Shown here in pieces: positions 3,833-53,654 of a stretch of 64,000 bases of DNA (position 1 is the first letter of the stretch; each line of letters begins with the position of its first letter). The notes under the pieces are model-generated. The model ran no database searches. It was not told the DNA's origin and worked only from the letters and a program-made list of their open reading frames with translations. Both the position numbers and the translations under genes were made by a program. The DNA comes from an uncultured Bacilli bacterium (GTDB lineage: Bacteria; Bacillota_I; Bacilli_A; RF39; UBA660), in the NCBI GenBank assembly GCA_947589105.1, contig CANQBL010000002.1, positions 25,698 to 89,697 on the forward strand, written 5' to 3'.

Positions 3833-3992
3833 AATATTTCACCCTTTCTATCTTTTTCATTATTAGCTTATTCAAATAATGGTAATTAGTACCACTTTAA
3901 AAGCCCTAGTATTATTAATTTATAAGTTTTATAATTTTTTGCTTGCTTGCTTTTTTATTAATGTTGTTATATAATTTTTTTAGGGTGATGAT

Positions 3993-4307
3993 ATGTTAAA
4001 GTATTTTATTATTGTTGTGATTCTTATTATAATAGCATTAGTAGTAATAAAAGCTAATAAACCTGATTTTAAATATGAAGCAAATAAACTAGTGGAGTAT
4101 TTAGGAGGAATAAAAAACATAACTAATATGGAAGTTAGTGTCTCTAGGTTTAAGGTTACTTTAAAAGATCCTTCAAAAGTTAATAAGGAGGGAATACAAA
4201 AATTAGGCGCGAGGGGTATTGTTGAAATAGATAATACTATGAAAATTATTTTTCAAGATGATGCAAAAAAATTAAAAAAATATATTGATCAGTTAAATAA
4301 CGATTAA
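3993..4307 (+). CDS. Membrane-anchored PTS EIIB-like domain protein with degenerate active site (Cys replaced by Ser)
   Basis: N-terminal TM (FIIVVILIIIALVVI), then LVEYLGGIKNITNMEVSVSRFKVTLKDPSKVNKEGIQKLGARGIVEI..., which aligns to the EIIB(Glc) fold motif LGGkeNI..vdhC.TRLR..lkD..kvd...lk.lGa.gvv. The phospho-Cys position is Ser. Confidence 0.55.
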   Translation: MLKYFIIVVILIIIALVVIKANKPDFKYEANKLVEYLGGIKNITNMEVSVSRFKVTLKDPSKVNKEGIQKLGARGIVEIDNTMKIIFQDDAKKLKKYIDQLNND

Positions 4308-4395
4308 TTTTTACAAAATTTAATAACATTATACAAAATTCGACAAAAAATAACATGGAAGCTTGGTATAATCTACTTAAAGAAAGGAGATTGTT

Positions 4396-46230: not shown

Positions 46231-47262
46231 ATGATTGGCGTAATAGAAAGGGTTAAGAATAACGTTCTTTTAAAGTGTAGCGCTTTAAATGATAAAATTA
46301 TTTCTAAAACCCTAATTGATATTATAAATGAAGGCATATATCATTTTGCGGAAGATTTAATGAGTTTGATAAGTGATATAAATTTTGATTTAACAGAAGA
46401 CGACTTACGTAAAAAAACTAGTGATATTATTAAAGTTTTAATTATTAAGAAAATAAAAAGAAAACTTTTTATTGATTCGCTTGCACTTCAAATAACAAAT
46501 GATTCGTATATTGAGGATTATTTTAATAAAAATATTAATTTAGATGAAATAAAAAATTCGTATATTAAAGAACTTAATGTTAATAAAAGTTCTAACCAAC
46601 TTAATATGACAGAAGATCTTAATCTTAATGAAATAATTCAAAATTTACGATTTTATATTAATGAAAATATTACTAACAGTATAAAAGAAAACGTTTTTTT
46701 AGTAAATGCGATAGATTCTTTGATAGAAAAAACAAAAAGTGAATTAGAACAAAGCTTGCAAAATATGATTAATGTTGCGGATTTAAATTATTTGGATATT
46801 TTAACTAACGAATTAAAAGAAAATATGAATGAAGAGAATAAAAAAGTAGAAAAAGGGGAAGAAAAGATGATGGAAAATGAAAGTATAGTTACAAATGATA
46901 ACTTAAAAGAAAACATTCATGATATTAACAAATTTGATAAATATGATGATATGACATTGTTTAATAAAACGATTTTAAGTCTTAATACAAAAGAAGAAAA
47001 ATTAACAAGAAAAGAAAATAGTTTAGAAAAAAGAAAAGAAGAAGTTGACGAACGTTTGAGTGCTACAAATAAAAATATTGAGGCAAACATTGAAAGGGAA
47101 AATAAATTATCTCAAAAGAAGTTAGAATTAAATTCAAAAGAAGTAGAACTTAATTCTAAATTATCAGAGGCTGAGGTAATATTCCTTAATATGAAACCTC
47201 TTATTAAAGGTTTGAACAAAATTATGGTTTCTGATGAGAAAGGTGGTAATGATGGTGAGTAA
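46231..47262 (+). CDS. Hypothetical acidic coiled-coil protein
   Basis: 343 aa with a strong RBS (AAGGAGGCTAGTT-ATG) and an E/K/N-rich C-terminal coiled coil. Confidence 0.45.
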   Translation: MIGVIERVKNNVLLKCSALNDKIISKTLIDIINEGIYHFAEDLMSLISDINFDLTEDDLRKKTSDIIKVLIIKKIKRKLFIDSLALQITNDSYIEDYFNKNINLDEIKNSYIKELNVNKSSNQLNMTEDLNLNEIIQNLRFYINENITNSIKENVFLVNAIDSLIEKTKSELEQSLQNMINVADLNYLDILTNELKENMNEENKKVEKGEEKMMENESIVTNDNLKENIHDINKFDKYDDMTLFNKTILSLNTKEEKLTRKENSLEKRKEEVDERLSATNKNIEANIERENKLSQKKLELNSKEVELNSKLSEAEVIFLNMKPLIKGLNKIMVSDEKGGNDGE

Positions 47263-48586
47263 ATTATTAAGTAGTGTTTTAGATAAAGTTAGTGAAGATA
47301 ATAACTCATATCGAATGAATCTAAGAAATTTAAATAAAGCCATCGATGAAAAAACAACTGCGTTAGTAGGTGATGTTGTTACCCTTTCTAATTATACGAT
47401 AGATTTTTCTAATGCAGTAATAACTGCAAAGGATATGCTAGTAAATCCAATATCAAGAGTAATAGAATCGTATGTTATTAAAGATTTAAGAAGTGTTGAA
47501 ACAGTAAATGAGCAATTTGTTGATAAGATAAACGATAAAATCGATAATTCAAGTATAAATAATTTTAATGAAAAGGATAGTTTTATACAAAATCTAGATT
47601 CATTGTTAAATGATAAATATTTAGAAATAGTTAAAATAAAACGGGTTAACTTTTTAAATGAAAAAGAAGAAAATGAGGATATTAAATCTGCTATTAATAA
47701 CTTTATTTCATTTTTAAAAAATGCTACTAATTTTGAAGATAATAAATTAGAAAATTTAATGTTAACATATGAAAAAGATTTATATAATATTATATCTTTA
47801 ACTTTAGACGAAATTAGCAAGTTATATTTGAATAATTTTGTTAGTGAAGTAACAAGTTCTTTAAACGCTAATTTAAATGTTGGTGAAACAATACAAAATT
47901 TAAATTCTACTGATGATTCTTTTGTTCCTTACATGCCAGATATTAAACCAGTTTTAGAAACGGGAGTACCACCAGTTCCAGAAATACCAGTGATTTCAAA
48001 TGATAGTAATTCTGATATTCAAAATGTTACTTCTTCAGTTCCAGAAATTCCAACAATAGAAGAAAACAAAGTACTTCCTATGGATATTCCTTCAATTGCT
48101 CCGATAGAAATAACTGATAAAAATAAGGAAGAAGAAGTAAAGAAAACTTATGATGTTGAAGAAATTCTTAAGATAGCTAAATCTCCAGTTGCTTCTTTAC
48201 CTATAGAGGAAAAGAAAAATGATAGTGATTATTTATCTGTGGCACCAATTTCTGTGAAAGAAGAAAGCGATGTAATTGATTCTGAATTTGATGAAAAAGA
48301 AATAGTTGAAGAAATGATTGCTAGATTATCAAAACGATTAGATCTTATAAACGAAAGACAGAAAAAATATGAAGAAGAAAAACAAAAATTAGAAGAAGAT
48401 GAAAGCTTTGTTAATGATTTAATTAATAGTTCTAATGCTAAAAAAGAAGAATTAGATAAATTTGAAGAGGAATTAAATAACAAAGAAAAAGAAATCGAAG
48501 AAAAACAAAAAGAATTAGATAAAAAAATTAATGATGTTTTACCTTTTGCAGATGCAATAATGAAAACAGAACACGAAGAGGCTTAA
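47252..48586 (+). CDS. Hypothetical acidic protein with Pro-rich linker and C-terminal coiled coil
   Basis: Start placed at the ATG after AAAGGTGG; overlaps the upstream gene by 11 nt. Contains PVLETGVPPVPEIPVIS...PEIPTIEE and a C-terminal EEEKQKLEE coiled coil. Confidence 0.45.
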   Translation: MVSKLLSSVLDKVSEDNNSYRMNLRNLNKAIDEKTTALVGDVVTLSNYTIDFSNAVITAKDMLVNPISRVIESYVIKDLRSVETVNEQFVDKINDKIDNSSINNFNEKDSFIQNLDSLLNDKYLEIVKIKRVNFLNEKEENEDIKSAINNFISFLKNATNFEDNKLENLMLTYEKDLYNIISLTLDEISKLYLNNFVSEVTSSLNANLNVGETIQNLNSTDDSFVPYMPDIKPVLETGVPPVPEIPVISNDSNSDIQNVTSSVPEIPTIEENKVLPMDIPSIAPIEITDKNKEEEVKKTYDVEEILKIAKSPVASLPIEEKKNDSDYLSVAPISVKEESDVIDSEFDEKEIVEEMIARLSKRLDLINERQKKYEEEKQKLEEDESFVNDLINSSNAKKEELDKFEEELNNKEKEIEEKQKELDKKINDVLPFADAIMKTEHEEA

Positions 48587-50496: not shown

Positions 50497-50573
<77 letters not shown>

Positions 50574-50582
50574 TTTAGTAAA

Positions 50583-50612
50583 TAACCCTTGTTATACAAG
50601 GGTTTTTTATTT
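50583..50612 (+). terminator. Rho-independent terminator after tRNA-Arg
   Basis: AACCCTTGT-tata-CAAGGGTT followed by TTTTATTTTTTT. Confidence 0.75.
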
Positions 50613-50840
50613 TTTTAATAATTAAAGTTTAGATAATATGTTTAATATTAATCATAAATAATAAATATATTTATGTTAAAAATAGTTTTATAAACTAGTT
50701 AATATCAATATTATTTTATTTTTTATAATTAGGTATTTTTATCAATAACTCAATTATAATAAGAAGACTTTTTAAAGTCTTTTTTTATATATTAAATTAA
50801 AATAAAAAAATTGTATAAAATCCGAGGGTTTTAAATATTT

Positions 50841-52892
50841 ATGTTTAACAATATAACTGAGGAGATGATAAAAATAAAAGAAAATTGTTTTGTAAATCAA
50901 ACTTCGTATAATGATTGTGGCTTAGCTTGCTTGACTATGATTTTAAAAAGTTATGGTCTTAAGGTTGAACTACATAATTTAAAAAGAGAATTTTCTACTG
51001 AAGATAAAATGATAAGTGTGTATGATCTTATTAAAATATCAAATAAAAAAGGAGTTAAAGCTACTGGCTATAAAAATGTATCATTAGAAAATACTAAACC
51101 ATTATGTATAGCTCATTTAATTGATAATGATAAACAACACTTTGTTGTTTTAATAAAGGTTTTAAAAAATAAGGTTTTGATAGCAGATCCATCAAGGAGA
51201 ATAATGTATGTTGATAAAAATAGTTTTATAAAAAAATATACTGGGGTAATGATTACTTTTGAGAAAAAAAAGCAAATTGTGAACGTAGTTTTAAAAAATA
51301 AAAAAATGATATTTAAAACTATTTTTCTTTCCGTGTTACTTTGCTTATTTAATGTTTTGTTTTCCTTTATGTTGCCAAGTGCTATTAATTTAATAAATGC
51401 TGGTAAAAAATTTCAATTTGTTATTTTAACACTTTTATTGTTTTTACTTATAGGTATTTTAAAAGATCTTTTAAATTATGTTAAAACTAATTTTTCTCTT
51501 AAGTTTCAATTATTTATCGATAGGTTTATTACAATTCCAACAATAGAAAATATTATCAATCTTCCTCACGAATTTTACCATGAAAATGGGTCTGGAGAAT
51601 TAATCGCAAAAATAAACGATTTATCTTTTATAAAAGAGGCAATTTTTAATTTTGTTGAGGTAGTTATTTTAAACTTACTTTTGATAATTTTTACTATTAT
51701 AATTTTCCTTTGTACTGATTTTTATATTTTTGTTTTAACGGTGTTGTTTATTTTTATATCATATTTAATTAATCGCTTTTATGTTTTAAAGAACTTAAAT
51801 AAATCTTACGATATTCAATTTTTAAACGAAAAATTTAGTAATAAACTTACTGATTCGCTTAATTTTATATTAACTATTAAAAATTTAGGTAAGGAAACCT
51901 TTTTCATTAATAAGATAAACTCTTCGTATAATGACGTTTTAAAAAAATATAAAGAGGTTTGTAAAGCTTATCAAAAAAAAGAATTGTTAATGAATATCAT
52001 TATTACTTTTTTCACTATCCTAATTCTTACTTTATTAGTAATTAAAAACAATTCTTTATCTAATATTTTATTTTTATTTTCATTAGAAACAATGATGATA
52101 AATTCAGTTTTAGAAATTTATAAGCTACTTCCTCTTTACATGGATTTTAAAAACGTTTATACAAGGTTAAATAATGCTTTAAAAAAAGTTGAAGTTTCAA
52201 ATGATTTAGATAAAATTAACATAAATAAAATAGTAATTAAAAATCTTAAGTACGATTATGATAATAAGCCTGTTTTAAAAGGAATTTCTTTAAAAATAAA
52301 AAAAGGAGATTGGATAATGGTTAATGGTCCAACCGGGAGTGGTAAATCTACTTTATTCAAAATACTTACTAAACAAATAGAATATAACGGAGACTCTATT
52401 TTTATAAATGAAACAAAAATAAGCAATCTTGATTTTTCGATTATTAGAAATTCCATAGTTTATGTTGATCAAAAAATAAAGCTTATAAACGAAAGTATTA
52501 AGGATAATGTTTTCTTAGGAGATAAATTTAATAATAAAGTGGTATTAACATCAGAAATTAGTAGTTTTTTAAAAGAAAACAATATAAATTATGATTACGT
52601 TATTGATAATACAAATTCTAATATATCAGCTGGTCAAGCTGGTAAAATAGCAATAGCGCGGGCATTAAACACAAAACGAAATTTTATAATTTTAGATGAA
52701 ACAACCAGTAGTATGGACGTATTAACCGAAGAAAAAATATTAGATAATATCAAAAAAAATTATAAAGATAAAACGATAATTCTAATTACCCATAGAAAAT
52801 CAAACATTAAATATTTTAATAAAATAGTAACGTTTAAAGATGGTAAAATAAAACAAATTATTGGAGGTAAAAATGGAAAAATTAACGTGTAG
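50841..52892 (+). CDS. Bacteriocin-processing/export ABC transporter with N-terminal C39 cysteine peptidase domain (SunT/LagD/ComA family)
   Basis: C39 domain: NQTSYNDCGLACLTMILKSYG (catalytic Cys) and a downstream His region. Six-TM MSD; NBD with Walker A GPTGSGKST, signature SAGQAGKIAIARA, and Walker B IILDETTSSMD. Confidence 0.85.
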   Translation: MFNNITEEMIKIKENCFVNQTSYNDCGLACLTMILKSYGLKVELHNLKREFSTEDKMISVYDLIKISNKKGVKATGYKNVSLENTKPLCIAHLIDNDKQHFVVLIKVLKNKVLIADPSRRIMYVDKNSFIKKYTGVMITFEKKKQIVNVVLKNKKMIFKTIFLSVLLCLFNVLFSFMLPSAINLINAGKKFQFVILTLLLFLLIGILKDLLNYVKTNFSLKFQLFIDRFITIPTIENIINLPHEFYHENGSGELIAKINDLSFIKEAIFNFVEVVILNLLLIIFTIIIFLCTDFYIFVLTVLFIFISYLINRFYVLKNLNKSYDIQFLNEKFSNKLTDSLNFILTIKNLGKETFFINKINSSYNDVLKKYKEVCKAYQKKELLMNIIITFFTILILTLLVIKNNSLSNILFLFSLETMMINSVLEIYKLLPLYMDFKNVYTRLNNALKKVEVSNDLDKININKIVIKNLKYDYDNKPVLKGISLKIKKGDWIMVNGPTGSGKSTLFKILTKQIEYNGDSIFINETKISNLDFSIIRNSIVYVDQKIKLINESIKDNVFLGDKFNNKVVLTSEISSFLKENNINYDYVIDNTNSNISAGQAGKIAIARALNTKRNFIILDETTSSMDVLTEEKILDNIKKNYKDKTIILITHRKSNIKYFNKIVTFKDGKIKQIIGGKNGKINV

Positions 52893-53013
52893 TCAAGCAA
52901 AACAGATAAAAGGTGGTGCATCAGGAGGTTGGATAGTTGCTGGTATAATAGCAGGAATAACTTTTTTAGTAGGTGTATTTGATGGCTTTACGAGGCCTTT
53001 TAAATGTCGTTAG
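52873..53013 (+). CDS. Double-glycine-leader bacteriocin precursor A (46 aa; not in ORF track)
   Basis: RBS GGAGGTAAAA-ATG, overlapping the transporter stop. Leader MEKLTCSQAKQIKGG; mature peptide ASGGWIVAGIIAGITFLVGVFDGFTRPFKCR with GxxxG motifs. Confidence 0.75.
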   Translation: MEKLTCSQAKQIKGGASGGWIVAGIIAGITFLVGVFDGFTRPFKCR

Positions 53014-53027
53014 GAAAGGAGAAATAT

Positions 53028-53195
53028 ATGAAATTAACTAAAAATGAAGCGCAAAATATTGTTGGGGGAGCAGGAATAACAGGTACTCTTATAAATTCGT
53101 TAATTAAAAGTTTTAATACTTTTTTGGATGTAGGTAGATATTTTGGAAGTAGTATAAGAAGATTATTTGGTGGCGCATCTTGTCCTATAAGATAA
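53028..53195 (+). CDS. Double-glycine-leader bacteriocin precursor B (55 aa; ORF-track start too far upstream)
   Basis: RBS AAAGGAGAAATAT-ATG. Leader MKLTKNEAQNIVGG; mature peptide AGITGTLINSLIKSFNTFLDVGRYFGSSIRRLFGGASCPIR (cationic, amphipathic). Confidence 0.75.
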   Translation: MKLTKNEAQNIVGGAGITGTLINSLIKSFNTFLDVGRYFGSSIRRLFGGASCPIR

Positions 53196-53390
53196 GAAAA
53201 GGATTTAGAATAATTATACTAATAATTATTTTTCCAATTGTAGTTGAATTCATTAATTTTTTTGCTAGGTTTTTAATGCAAGGGGGTAGAATTTTAGGGA
53301 CAATAATTCGAATAATTATGAGTTTTTAAAAATAAATGGCAGCTTTTAATAAAAAACTGTCATTTTTTGTTATAAATAAACAAAAATATA

Positions 53391-53419
53391 TTGTCATAAT
53401 TAAAAACGGGTGTTATAAT
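53391..53419 (+). promoter_or_regulatory. SigmaA-type promoter for rpsU
   Basis: TTGTCA, 17-nt spacer, TGtTATAAT (extended -10). Confidence 0.6.
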
Positions 53420-53453
53420 TACTAGTAGAAAAAAAGAGAGGGGGGAAAGAAAA

Positions 53454-53654
53454 ATGATAACCGTACAAGTAAAGAACGGAAACGTTGATGCAGCGTTAAA
53501 GAGATTTAAGCAAAAAGTTGCAAAAAGTGGTCTCCCTTCAGAAATTAAAAAGAAACAAGCTTTTGATAAACCTGGAGTTGAAAGAAGAAACGCTAAAAAA
53601 GAAGCAATTAAGAACAGTCGTAAGGCTGCAAAACGTGAAAGAAATGCTGCGTAG
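53454..53654 (+). CDS. rpsU: 30S ribosomal protein S21
   Basis: 66 aa, basic; ...ALKRFKQKVAKSG...KPGVERRNAKKEA... is S21-like. Confidence 0.85.
   Translation: MITVQVKNGNVDAALKRFKQKVAKSGLPSEIKKKQAFDKPGVERRNAKKEAIKNSRKAAKRERNAA

Follow-up and report, generated by a model that had tools for sequence, protein, structure and literature searches.

A conserved exporter and double-glycine peptide pair beside rpsU in uncultured gut Bacilli: a candidate class IIb-type two-peptide bacteriocin cassette

A four-gene cassette upstream of rpsU

We analyzed a 64,000-nucleotide (nt) stretch of contig CANQBL010000002.1 from an uncultured Bacilli bacterium (hereafter the window), focusing on a compact locus on its forward strand just upstream of rpsU, the gene for ribosomal protein S21. 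Positions 50841-53329 hold a real four-gene unit, consisting of an ATP-binding cassette (ABC) exporter gene (50841-52892; 683 amino acids, aa), two genes encoding double-glycine peptides, pepA (52873-53013; 46 aa) and pepB (53028-53195; 55 aa), and a gene for a small membrane protein, ORF3 (53180-53329; 49 aa), which we treat as a putative immunity gene. The exporter was identified through Pfam domains, the two peptide genes through their ribosome-binding sites (RBS), leaders, and homologues, and ORF3 through an open frame that is conserved in relatives.

The exporter displayed the Pfam domains Peptidase_C39 (E 1.4e-31), ABC_membrane, and ABC_tran, all above cut-offs, i.e., a C39 peptidase joined to a six-transmembrane (6-TM) domain and an ATPase. 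Its catalytic Cys26 lies in the context YNDCGLACL, and this residue, the oxyanion Gln20, and the catalytic His100 and Asp116 were invariant across 39 exporter homologues, bearing out the C39 domain that an earlier, sequence-only reading of this DNA had placed here around NDCGLACL. Walker A and Walker B were located at residues 496 and 616, respectively. The closest solved structure was the peptidase-containing ABC transporter (PCAT) PCAT1 of Clostridium thermocellum (PDB 4ry2; full-length alignment, E 1e-62), with ComA (8hf4; full-length alignment, E 1.5e-49) also among the closest, and all three share the catalytic Cys, His, and Asp as well as the oxyanion Gln. The exporter of the window lineage has no HlyD-type partner, which we counted as a further likeness to PCAT1 and ComA. 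It differs from this comparison set in its signature motif (ISAGQ vs LSGGQ), and it scored under the curated cut-offs of every NCBIfam transporter subfamily, its best match being TIGR01193 ‘peptide cleavage/export ABC transporter’ at 250.9 bits for a cut-off of 523.85. These low scores mark a divergent lineage, and judged by its architecture the exporter is a PCAT, albeit a divergent one that falls short of the curated subfamily threshold. Upstream of the gene, the RBS CGAGGG is conserved among relatives; no conserved promoter or regulatory motif was found in the spacer 5′ of it, which is extremely AT-rich and in which the RBS alone is conserved.

Both peptide genes are tightly packed behind the exporter. 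The pepA ATG at 52873 lies 20 nt inside the 3′ end of the exporter gene, 5 nt after the RBS GGAGG (52863-52867), and the pepB ATG at 53028 follows about 14 nt past the pepA stop, 6 nt after the RBS AAGGAG (53016-53021). The sequence-only reading had both short genes overlapping the exporter stop codon, which holds for pepA but not for pepB, as the latter starts after the pepA stop. It had also described both genes as missing from the open reading frame (ORF) track, although public gene calls on identical contigs already give the 46-aa and 55-aa products. PepA is composed of a 15-aa double-glycine leader (MEKLTCSQAKQIKGG) and a 31-aa mature hydrophobic helix with the GxxxG motifs GIIAG and GVFDG and the tail DGFTRPFKCR, while pepB is composed of a 14-aa double-glycine leader (MKLTKNEAQNIVGG) and a 41-aa cationic amphiphilic mature peptide. 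The latter carries an invariant GxxxG..RR..C motif that includes G36xxxG40 (GRYFG), plus SLIKS; G36, G40, R44, R45, and C52 were invariant in a diverse pepB set. Both leaders match the double-glycine consensus (L-12, I-4, G-2, G-1), and those of the homologues display L-12, E-8, L-7, I-4, [G/A]-2, and G-1. The double-glycine leaders and the helix-packing motifs recognized in the sequence-only reading (GxxxG/AxxxG in pepA, SxxxS in pepB) are thereby upheld, the leaders by a family-wide consensus and the motifs with the invariant G36xxxG40 of pepB added to them. Each mature peptide also contains a single conserved Cys near its C-terminus. Besides pepA and pepB, there was no further double-glycine-leader ORF in the window.

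An AlphaFold2 (AF2) run on a natural pepA–pepB fusion, for which the alignment covered pepA only, yielded a pLDDT of 58.6 and a pTM of 0.30; MAFFT had misplaced the pepA homologues onto the pepB half of this fusion (P0247). The model is usable only as an indication that each mature peptide may form one long helix. P0247 and P0164, in which pepA and pepB form one uninterrupted 102-aa ORF, come from contigs of ~500 nt; they may represent either natural fusions or errors of sequencing or assembly.

Upstream, the cassette is preceded by tRNA-Arg(tct) (50497-50573, forward strand; ARAGORN and Rfam), which lies outside it, and by the strong intrinsic terminator of this tRNA gene (placed at 50584-50604 or 50584-50614), a 9-bp stem followed by a T-run; tRNA and terminator ahead of a C39 ABC exporter are as the sequence-only reading had them. 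An AT-rich hairpin with a T-run at 50764-50786, read from the sequence, precedes the exporter gene on the same strand. The Rfam scan of the window returned tRNAs and no other RNA genes. The locus is flanked by spoIIIAH, gerE, yqfC, and yqfD, and the host genomes are those of spore formers. A 450-aa Glu/Lys/Asn-rich protein without a Pfam match is encoded at 47234-48586, between an unannotated gene and spoIIIAH, a position that is conserved in related contigs.

Downstream, the cassette is closed by a weak terminator-like hairpin with a T-run (53337-53368, forward strand, read from the sequence), and rpsU (53454-53654; Pfam Ribosomal_S21) forms a separate transcription unit. It has its own sigma-70-type promoter at 53391-53419 (TTGTCA, 17 nt, TG-n-TATAAT), with 11/12 consensus matches and an extended -10. 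The cassette is followed by a terminator in all lineages inspected, and rpsU is equipped there with a promoter of its own (TTGnnn, 17 nt, TGTTATAAT) as well as a strong Shine-Dalgarno sequence; where the window hairpin is weak, other lineages have clear intrinsic terminators at the cassette end. Co-transcription with rpsU as the cause of the adjacency was therefore ruled out: the terminator and the independent consensus promoter indicate that cassette and rpsU do not form an operon, and their adjacency is best read as an ancestral linkage that is rarely broken. The rpsU promoter and leader are themselves strikingly conserved, the promoter being followed by GAAGGGAGGGA before the start codon, both in the window (53391-53453) and in the spacers of L033, L039, L041, L045, L061, L079, L098, L118, and L120 (loci introduced below). 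In several species, this conservation is strong enough for an apparently conserved but spurious ORF (‘...FFVINKQKYIVI..GCYNY’) to arise.

Homologues, inheritance, and selection

Searches for relatives of the two peptides returned 23 pepA clusters at 90% identity, 70-89% identical to pepA, and 35 pepB clusters at the same level, while a pepB profile search across 1.84 billion representatives yielded 397 clusters at 50% identity and a word-indexed profile search with pepB 327. All pepB relatives were unnamed or ‘hypothetical’, and the few with a source label were metagenome-assembled genomes (MAGs) called ‘Bacilli bacterium’. Among the pepA homologues, three scored above the 21.5-bit cut-off of NCBIfam TIGR03949 (‘class IIb bacteriocin, lactobin A/cerein 7B family’), namely P0010 (27.4 bits), P0006, and P0018 (21.7 bits each), with matches spanning nearly the whole 45-position model, i.e., the leader and the Gly-rich hydrophobic region; the DGxxRPxxC[RN] tail of the homologues mostly lies outside the model match. 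In the alignment of window pepA with its 23 homologues (A1), 9/24 sequences matched TIGR03949 at E<=0.1, most homologues remaining under the cut-off; window pepA itself had no match to it at E<=1, and pepB members matched leader models only. Literature searches with the conserved peptide motifs returned a single, unrelated match, those for ‘double-glycine’ with ‘RFN20’ returned none, and those for RF39, bacteriocin, and C39 returned nothing on this clade among the matches listed. The peptides had been described from the sequence alone as lacking any homolog and as possibly a new bacteriocin; the first part does not stand, since there are hundreds of homologues, all uncharacterised, while the notion of a new family does.

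To place the locus among relatives, one genome per GTDB species was scanned, which gave 28 MAGs labelled, among others, uncultured Bacilli, Mollicutes, Clostridium sp. CAG:594, and Candidatus Aphodocola; these were retrieved through pepB itself, so that empty sites fall outside the set. The order ABC-pepA-pepB-(ORF3)-rpsU-yqfC-yqfD-vanZ-ybeY was found in 28/28 of these species. A metagenomic scan for related loci with a narrower alignment (A4) provided 80 loci (L043-L122), which together with 10 look-up loci (L033-L042) gave 90 loci for the downstream analysis, 69 of them with enough downstream sequence. PepA was located directly 5′ of pepB in all 27 related species whose contig reaches pepA and in 68 of the 76 metagenomic loci with enough upstream sequence. 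On the downstream side, rpsU followed within <=700 nt on the same strand in 37/69 loci, and five further loci had a Bro-N-domain gene between the cassette and rpsU. This gene of ~280 aa is specific to one sub-lineage (L051 2524-3411, L052 5368-6207, L081 5327-6205; fragments in L055 and L057). In the remaining loci, different core genes come after the cassette, namely relA, ftsAZ, polC, dinB, or gatCA. Four distant lineages have wholly different outer flanks, with gyrBA-ylbDE, ogg, Flg_new, or DUF4176 upstream and yqeY or recG downstream, and the cassette is still directly 5′ of rpsU.

Divergence of the cassette closely tracked that of its surroundings. Pairwise identities of the exporter and of the flanking core proteins were correlated with a Mantel r of 0.82, which none of 2000 permutations reached (0/2000), and those of the peptides with r 0.83. 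GC content is ~0.21-0.28 across the locus, the same as in the flanks, and there was no integrase or repeat near it. Taken together, the identical synteny and the co-divergence argue for vertical inheritance as opposed to a tRNA-targeted island: across a large group of uncultured gut Bacilli, the cassette has been passed on vertically beside rpsU, and it is no recent island. The sequence-only reading had instead proposed horizontal acquisition next to the tRNA, with tRNA-Arg directly followed by rpsU as the arrangement to look for in related genomes. This is contradicted by the cassette standing before rpsU in 28/28 related species, by the co-divergence, and by a lack of copies in the plasmid and viral-contig searches.

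The tRNA-Arg gene adjoins the upstream germination-like gene with a Germane domain in 17 related MAGs, wherever the contig reaches that far, and the interval from tRNA-Arg to the exporter gene is the sole variable one among relatives. Most related species have a divergently transcribed DAGK_cat (lipid kinase) gene of ~310 aa there (L005 873-1811), often with variable genes in addition; no such gene or remnant was present anywhere in the window. Distant lineages, in turn, encode an extra single-pass protein of 109-151 aa between the exporter gene and pepA (L033 7414-7857, L036 7440-7856, L039 4414-4848, L040 4384-4713, L041 4424-4858, L042 4387-4842), which lacks a Pfam match. Judged by eye, a TM helix at its N-terminus precedes what looks like an extracellular domain, and a role as an accessory protein or as an alternative immunity protein is conceivable. 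This protein is absent from the whole window lineage, which has lost it; the lack of an accessory protein, singled out as unusual in the sequence-only reading, thus reflects a loss within a family whose distant members carry such a protein.

We next compared selection along the locus. Mean identity to the window across the 28 species was 78% for mature pepA, 66% for mature pepB, 47-52% for the leaders, and 46% for the ABC exporter, compared with 61% for YqfD, 70% for YbeY, and 88% for S21. The ratio of non-synonymous to synonymous substitution rates (dN/dS) was 0.055-0.13 for mature pepA, 0.13-0.19 for mature pepB, 0.30-0.38 for the leaders, and 0.35-0.39 for ORF3, all rough values as dS is near saturation. 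The mature peptides are under strong purifying selection, and the faster evolution of the leaders is what one would predict where function resides in the mature peptide. Given the numerous homologue clusters and the low dN/dS of the mature parts, pepA and pepB are not chance ORFs.

ORF3, a putative immunity protein

The sequence-only reading had found no immunity gene in the locus, yet ORF3 lies directly after pepB, with 49 codons and one predicted TM helix, and is a candidate for this role by analogy. It starts with TTG at 53180, overlapping the last 16 nt of pepB, an overlap that is conserved in related species; the frame is open, of the same length, and with TTG, ATG, or GTG at the same aligned codon in 22/28 of them, and ORF3-like genes were detected in 31/80 metagenomic loci. 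The ORF3 product combines a basic N-terminus with one predicted TM helix and the conserved C-terminal motif GRIxGTxIR. The start codon is made up of the last base of a pepB Ser codon and the TG of the conserved pepB Cys codon, and its Shine-Dalgarno sequence GGTGG (53169-53173), 6 nt before the start, is encoded by pepB Gly-Gly codons. The same overlap geometry occurs in the distant lineage L033 (position 8153), which suggests that the coupling is ancient. Conservation of the pepB C-terminus may be partly due to dual coding with the ORF3 start.

Profile comparison with hhalign aligned GRIxGTxIR of ORF3 with the invariant pepB region GRxxGSxIRR...C. This similarity had a P of 2.3e-4 within the window lineage alone and reached a probability of 93% (E 3e-7) once four distant gene-called homologues were added. 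With 48 unique sequences it rose to 95.5% (E 1.5e-8), in a comparison whose metagenomic ORF3 set was chosen partly by a motif regular expression. Among column-shuffled controls 0/200 reached the score, the best control obtaining 20.4 as opposed to 40.2. ORF3 of distant lineages also ends in a Cys at the pepB Cys position. On the strength of this profile similarity, ORF3 is a leaderless, predicted membrane-anchored relative of the C-terminal half of pepB.

Small immunity proteins of this kind are documented (CbnZ, 42 aa; BrcI, 53 aa; EnkIaz, 52 aa; AbpIM, 55 aa; PMC6957408), and CbnZ has a single transmembrane domain in an N-in/C-out orientation and is encoded directly after the cbnXY peptide genes (PMC6957408). 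ORF3 resembles this set in its small size, one predicted TM helix, basic N-terminus, and gene position right after the second peptide, a likeness of size, predicted topology, and position. What sets ORF3 apart from these proteins is its detectable homology to the cognate peptide, pepB, in the C-terminal half of the latter; ORF3 is also absent from part of the family. A closer parallel in this respect is gallocin A (GllA1/GllA2), whose immunity peptide GIP structurally mimics the toxin peptides, with competition proposed as the mechanism (PMC10100652). As predicted for our cassette, gallocin A is a two-peptide bacteriocin of a gut bacterium with functionally important Cys residues and a third operon gene resembling the toxin peptides. 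However, the gallocin peptides form intramolecular disulfides in helical hairpins, whereas pepA and pepB have a single Cys each, and the resemblance of GIP to its toxin is structural and derived from modelling, whereas the ORF3–pepB relation is visible at the level of sequence profiles. By this analogy, ORF3 looks like a putative immunity factor and would fit immunity by mimicry as proposed for gallocin A.

The pepA homologues keep the motif DG..RP..C[RN], and the Cys is lost in L006 alone. In this locus (3849-4388; ABC exporter 65% identical), Ser replaces the pepA Cys, ORF3 is lost, and the pepB Cys is kept, which could represent either the beginning decay of the system or a functional link between the pepA Cys and ORF3. 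More generally, if ORF3 is the immunity factor, another protein must substitute for it where it is missing, perhaps the 109-151-aa protein of the distant lineages.

Class assignment, competing explanations, and implications

By definition, the two peptide genes of a class IIb bacteriocin are neighbours, their double-glycine leaders are removed by a dedicated ABC transporter, the helices pack through GxxxG motifs, and the operon includes an immunity gene (PMC2850506). GxxxG motifs are found in all characterised class IIb peptides, with the peptide genes adjacent and the immunity gene in the same operon (PMC2850506). Our cassette has the adjacent peptide genes, the leaders (15 and 14 aa, against 15-30 residues for the class) and the C39 exporter within the operon, and GxxxG-type motifs (for the class GxxxG, or AxxxA/SxxxS) in both peptides; as a candidate immunity gene, ORF3 fits in position, size, and predicted topology and is conserved, though absent from 6/28 species. 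In common with lactococcin G, plantaricin EF/JK, carnobacteriocin XY, and brochocin C, it combines adjacent genes for peptides whose double-glycine leaders are 14-15 aa long, mature peptides (31 and 41 aa here) that are cationic and hydrophobic or amphiphilic and contain GxxxG, a C39 ABC exporter in the operon, and a small membrane protein gene directly downstream. It differs from them in that mature pepB has no detectable sequence similarity to any characterised class IIb peptide, in the exactly one conserved Cys near each C-terminus, in the conserved chromosomal position and co-divergence, as opposed to a patchy or plasmid-borne distribution, and, for the window lineage, in the lack of an accessory protein. 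Deep vertical conservation by rpsU, one conserved Cys per peptide, and an immunity-like protein related to pepB are thus the unusual traits of this system.

Taken together, we consider it somewhat probable (about 0.6) that the cassette encodes, in one transcription unit, a self-contained two-peptide (class IIb-type) membrane-permeabilising bacteriocin system with mimic-type immunity, and that pepA and pepB would represent a new family of class IIb-like two-peptide bacteriocins, deeply conserved and with a killing function. The core idea of a class IIb-like two-peptide locus, already put forward in the sequence-only reading, is supported by the full computable anatomy and by the three pepA homologues that pass TIGR03949. 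From this anatomy we infer cleavage and export, membrane killing, synergy between the peptides, a disulfide, and an immunity role, in the following scheme. The PCAT would recognise the double-glycine leaders of pepA and pepB, its Cys26/His100/Asp116 peptidase would cleave after GG (AG in relatives), and the exporter would release two peptides, one hydrophobic (31 aa) and one cationic and amphiphilic (41 aa). Once outside, their helices may pack through GxxxG within the membrane of the target, possibly with a membrane protein as receptor, and permeabilise that membrane; the single Cys near each C-terminus may join pepA and pepB by a disulfide. ORF3 would be translationally coupled to pepB, its start codon using the TG of the pepB Cys codon, and is predicted to adopt an N-in/C-out topology that would display a copy of the pepB GxxxG-Arg motif, so that it could shield the producer through competition with pepB, either for pepA or for the receptor. 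Finally, the system is ancient in a clade of uncultured low-GC gut Bacilli and passed on by vertical inheritance next to rpsU.

Several observations weigh against this bacteriocin reading. The window peptides gave leader-type or chance matches at most in Pfam, NCBIfam, and PDB sequence searches, profiles included; ORF3 is missing in 6/28 species of the window lineage and in ~60% of distant loci; and the low-confidence AF2 fusion model is uninformative on helix packing or Cys proximity. In addition, a fixed chromosomal position and co-divergence among species with YqfD identity of only 41% are not typical of a bacteriocin, nor is the absence of cassette copies in a plasmid tblastn and a viral-contig scan, and mature pepA (78%) is more conserved than YbeY (70%) and most neighbouring core proteins. 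Such a core-like pattern would also fit a self-directed or housekeeping role.

This leads to the alternative that has most in its favor, if still an unlikely one, namely that the same export machinery delivers peptides acting on the producer or its kin, in sporulation-linked fratricide or cannibalism, in kin discrimination, or as a membrane-active signal. A self- or kin-directed role would account for a cassette that evolves in the manner of core genes: it is vertically inherited with a fixed rpsU neighbour in 28 species and most distant lineages, follows the flanking core genes (Mantel r 0.82), has a mature pepA with dN/dS down to 0.055, has no plasmid or viral-contig copies in the scans made, and resides in spore-forming hosts, as seen from the spoIIIAH, gerE, yqfC, and yqfD genes around it, with apparently small genomes. 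The pneumococcal two-peptide fratricin CibAB-CibC is likewise chromosomal and conserved. However, the ~6 kb around the locus revealed neither a sensor kinase or response regulator nor a sporulation-type promoter, and a 31-aa transmembrane-like peptide would make a poor diffusible signal. Moreover, the anatomy is the same as in ordinary class IIb systems, so that this alternative concerns the target and the ecology rather than the biochemistry.

Double-glycine leaders and C39 exporters are also common to ComC/BlpC-type pheromones, ComA is among the closest solved structures of the exporter, and pepA has a weak, leader-only match to the NCBIfam EntF induction-factor model (E 0.053), all of which could point to quorum-sensing or inducer pheromones exported via a ComA-like transporter instead of toxins. 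We regard this as very improbable, given that the cassette encodes two long peptides (31 and 41 aa) that contain GxxxG motifs and a hydrophobic core able to span a membrane, as opposed to the one short unstructured peptide of a ComC/BlpC-type system, and given the lack of histidine kinase or response regulator domains in genes within ~6 kb, the conserved downstream single-TM protein homologous to pepB, and pepA homologues that match a class IIb bacteriocin model over both leader and mature region. Least credible of all is a recently acquired, strain-specific bacteriocin island at tRNA-Arg devoid of immunity or accessory genes, which the position directly after a tRNA gene and the variable tRNA–ABC interval might suggest but which is at odds with identical gene order in 28 species, co-divergence with the flanks, GC content like that of the surroundings, no integrase or repeats nearby, a cassette that stays with rpsU and not with the tRNA where the flanks differ, and the presence of the immunity-like ORF3.

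Beyond the two-peptide bacteriocin reading, a more far-reaching version can be put forward only tentatively and is, in our view, doubtful. In it, the cassette would have been a housekeeping-like module of a whole clade of small-genome gut Bacilli since the origin of that clade, its peptides would form a disulfide heterodimer, ORF3 would have arisen from a toxin-gene duplication and would neutralise or anchor pepA by mimicry, and the system would serve kin lysis or sporulation-linked cannibalism. If true, this would be a case, documented at the sequence level, of a bacteriocin immunity protein derived from the very toxin that it counters.

Overall, the locus belongs to a large family of double-glycine peptide pairs that had no name before and that occurs in uncultured low-GC Bacilli of guts and digesters, a clade whose antagonism and secretion biology is almost wholly undescribed. 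The peptides are short, apparently unmodified, and synthesisable, which makes them direct candidates for narrow-spectrum antimicrobials against hard-to-culture gut Bacilli. The ORF3–pepB homology would provide a concrete version of ‘immunity by mimicry’ with sequence-level evidence behind it. Finally, the deep vertical conservation challenges the usual view of bacteriocin loci as fast-turnover accessory genes, and prompts one to ask why reduced genomes retain a cassette of this kind so stably.

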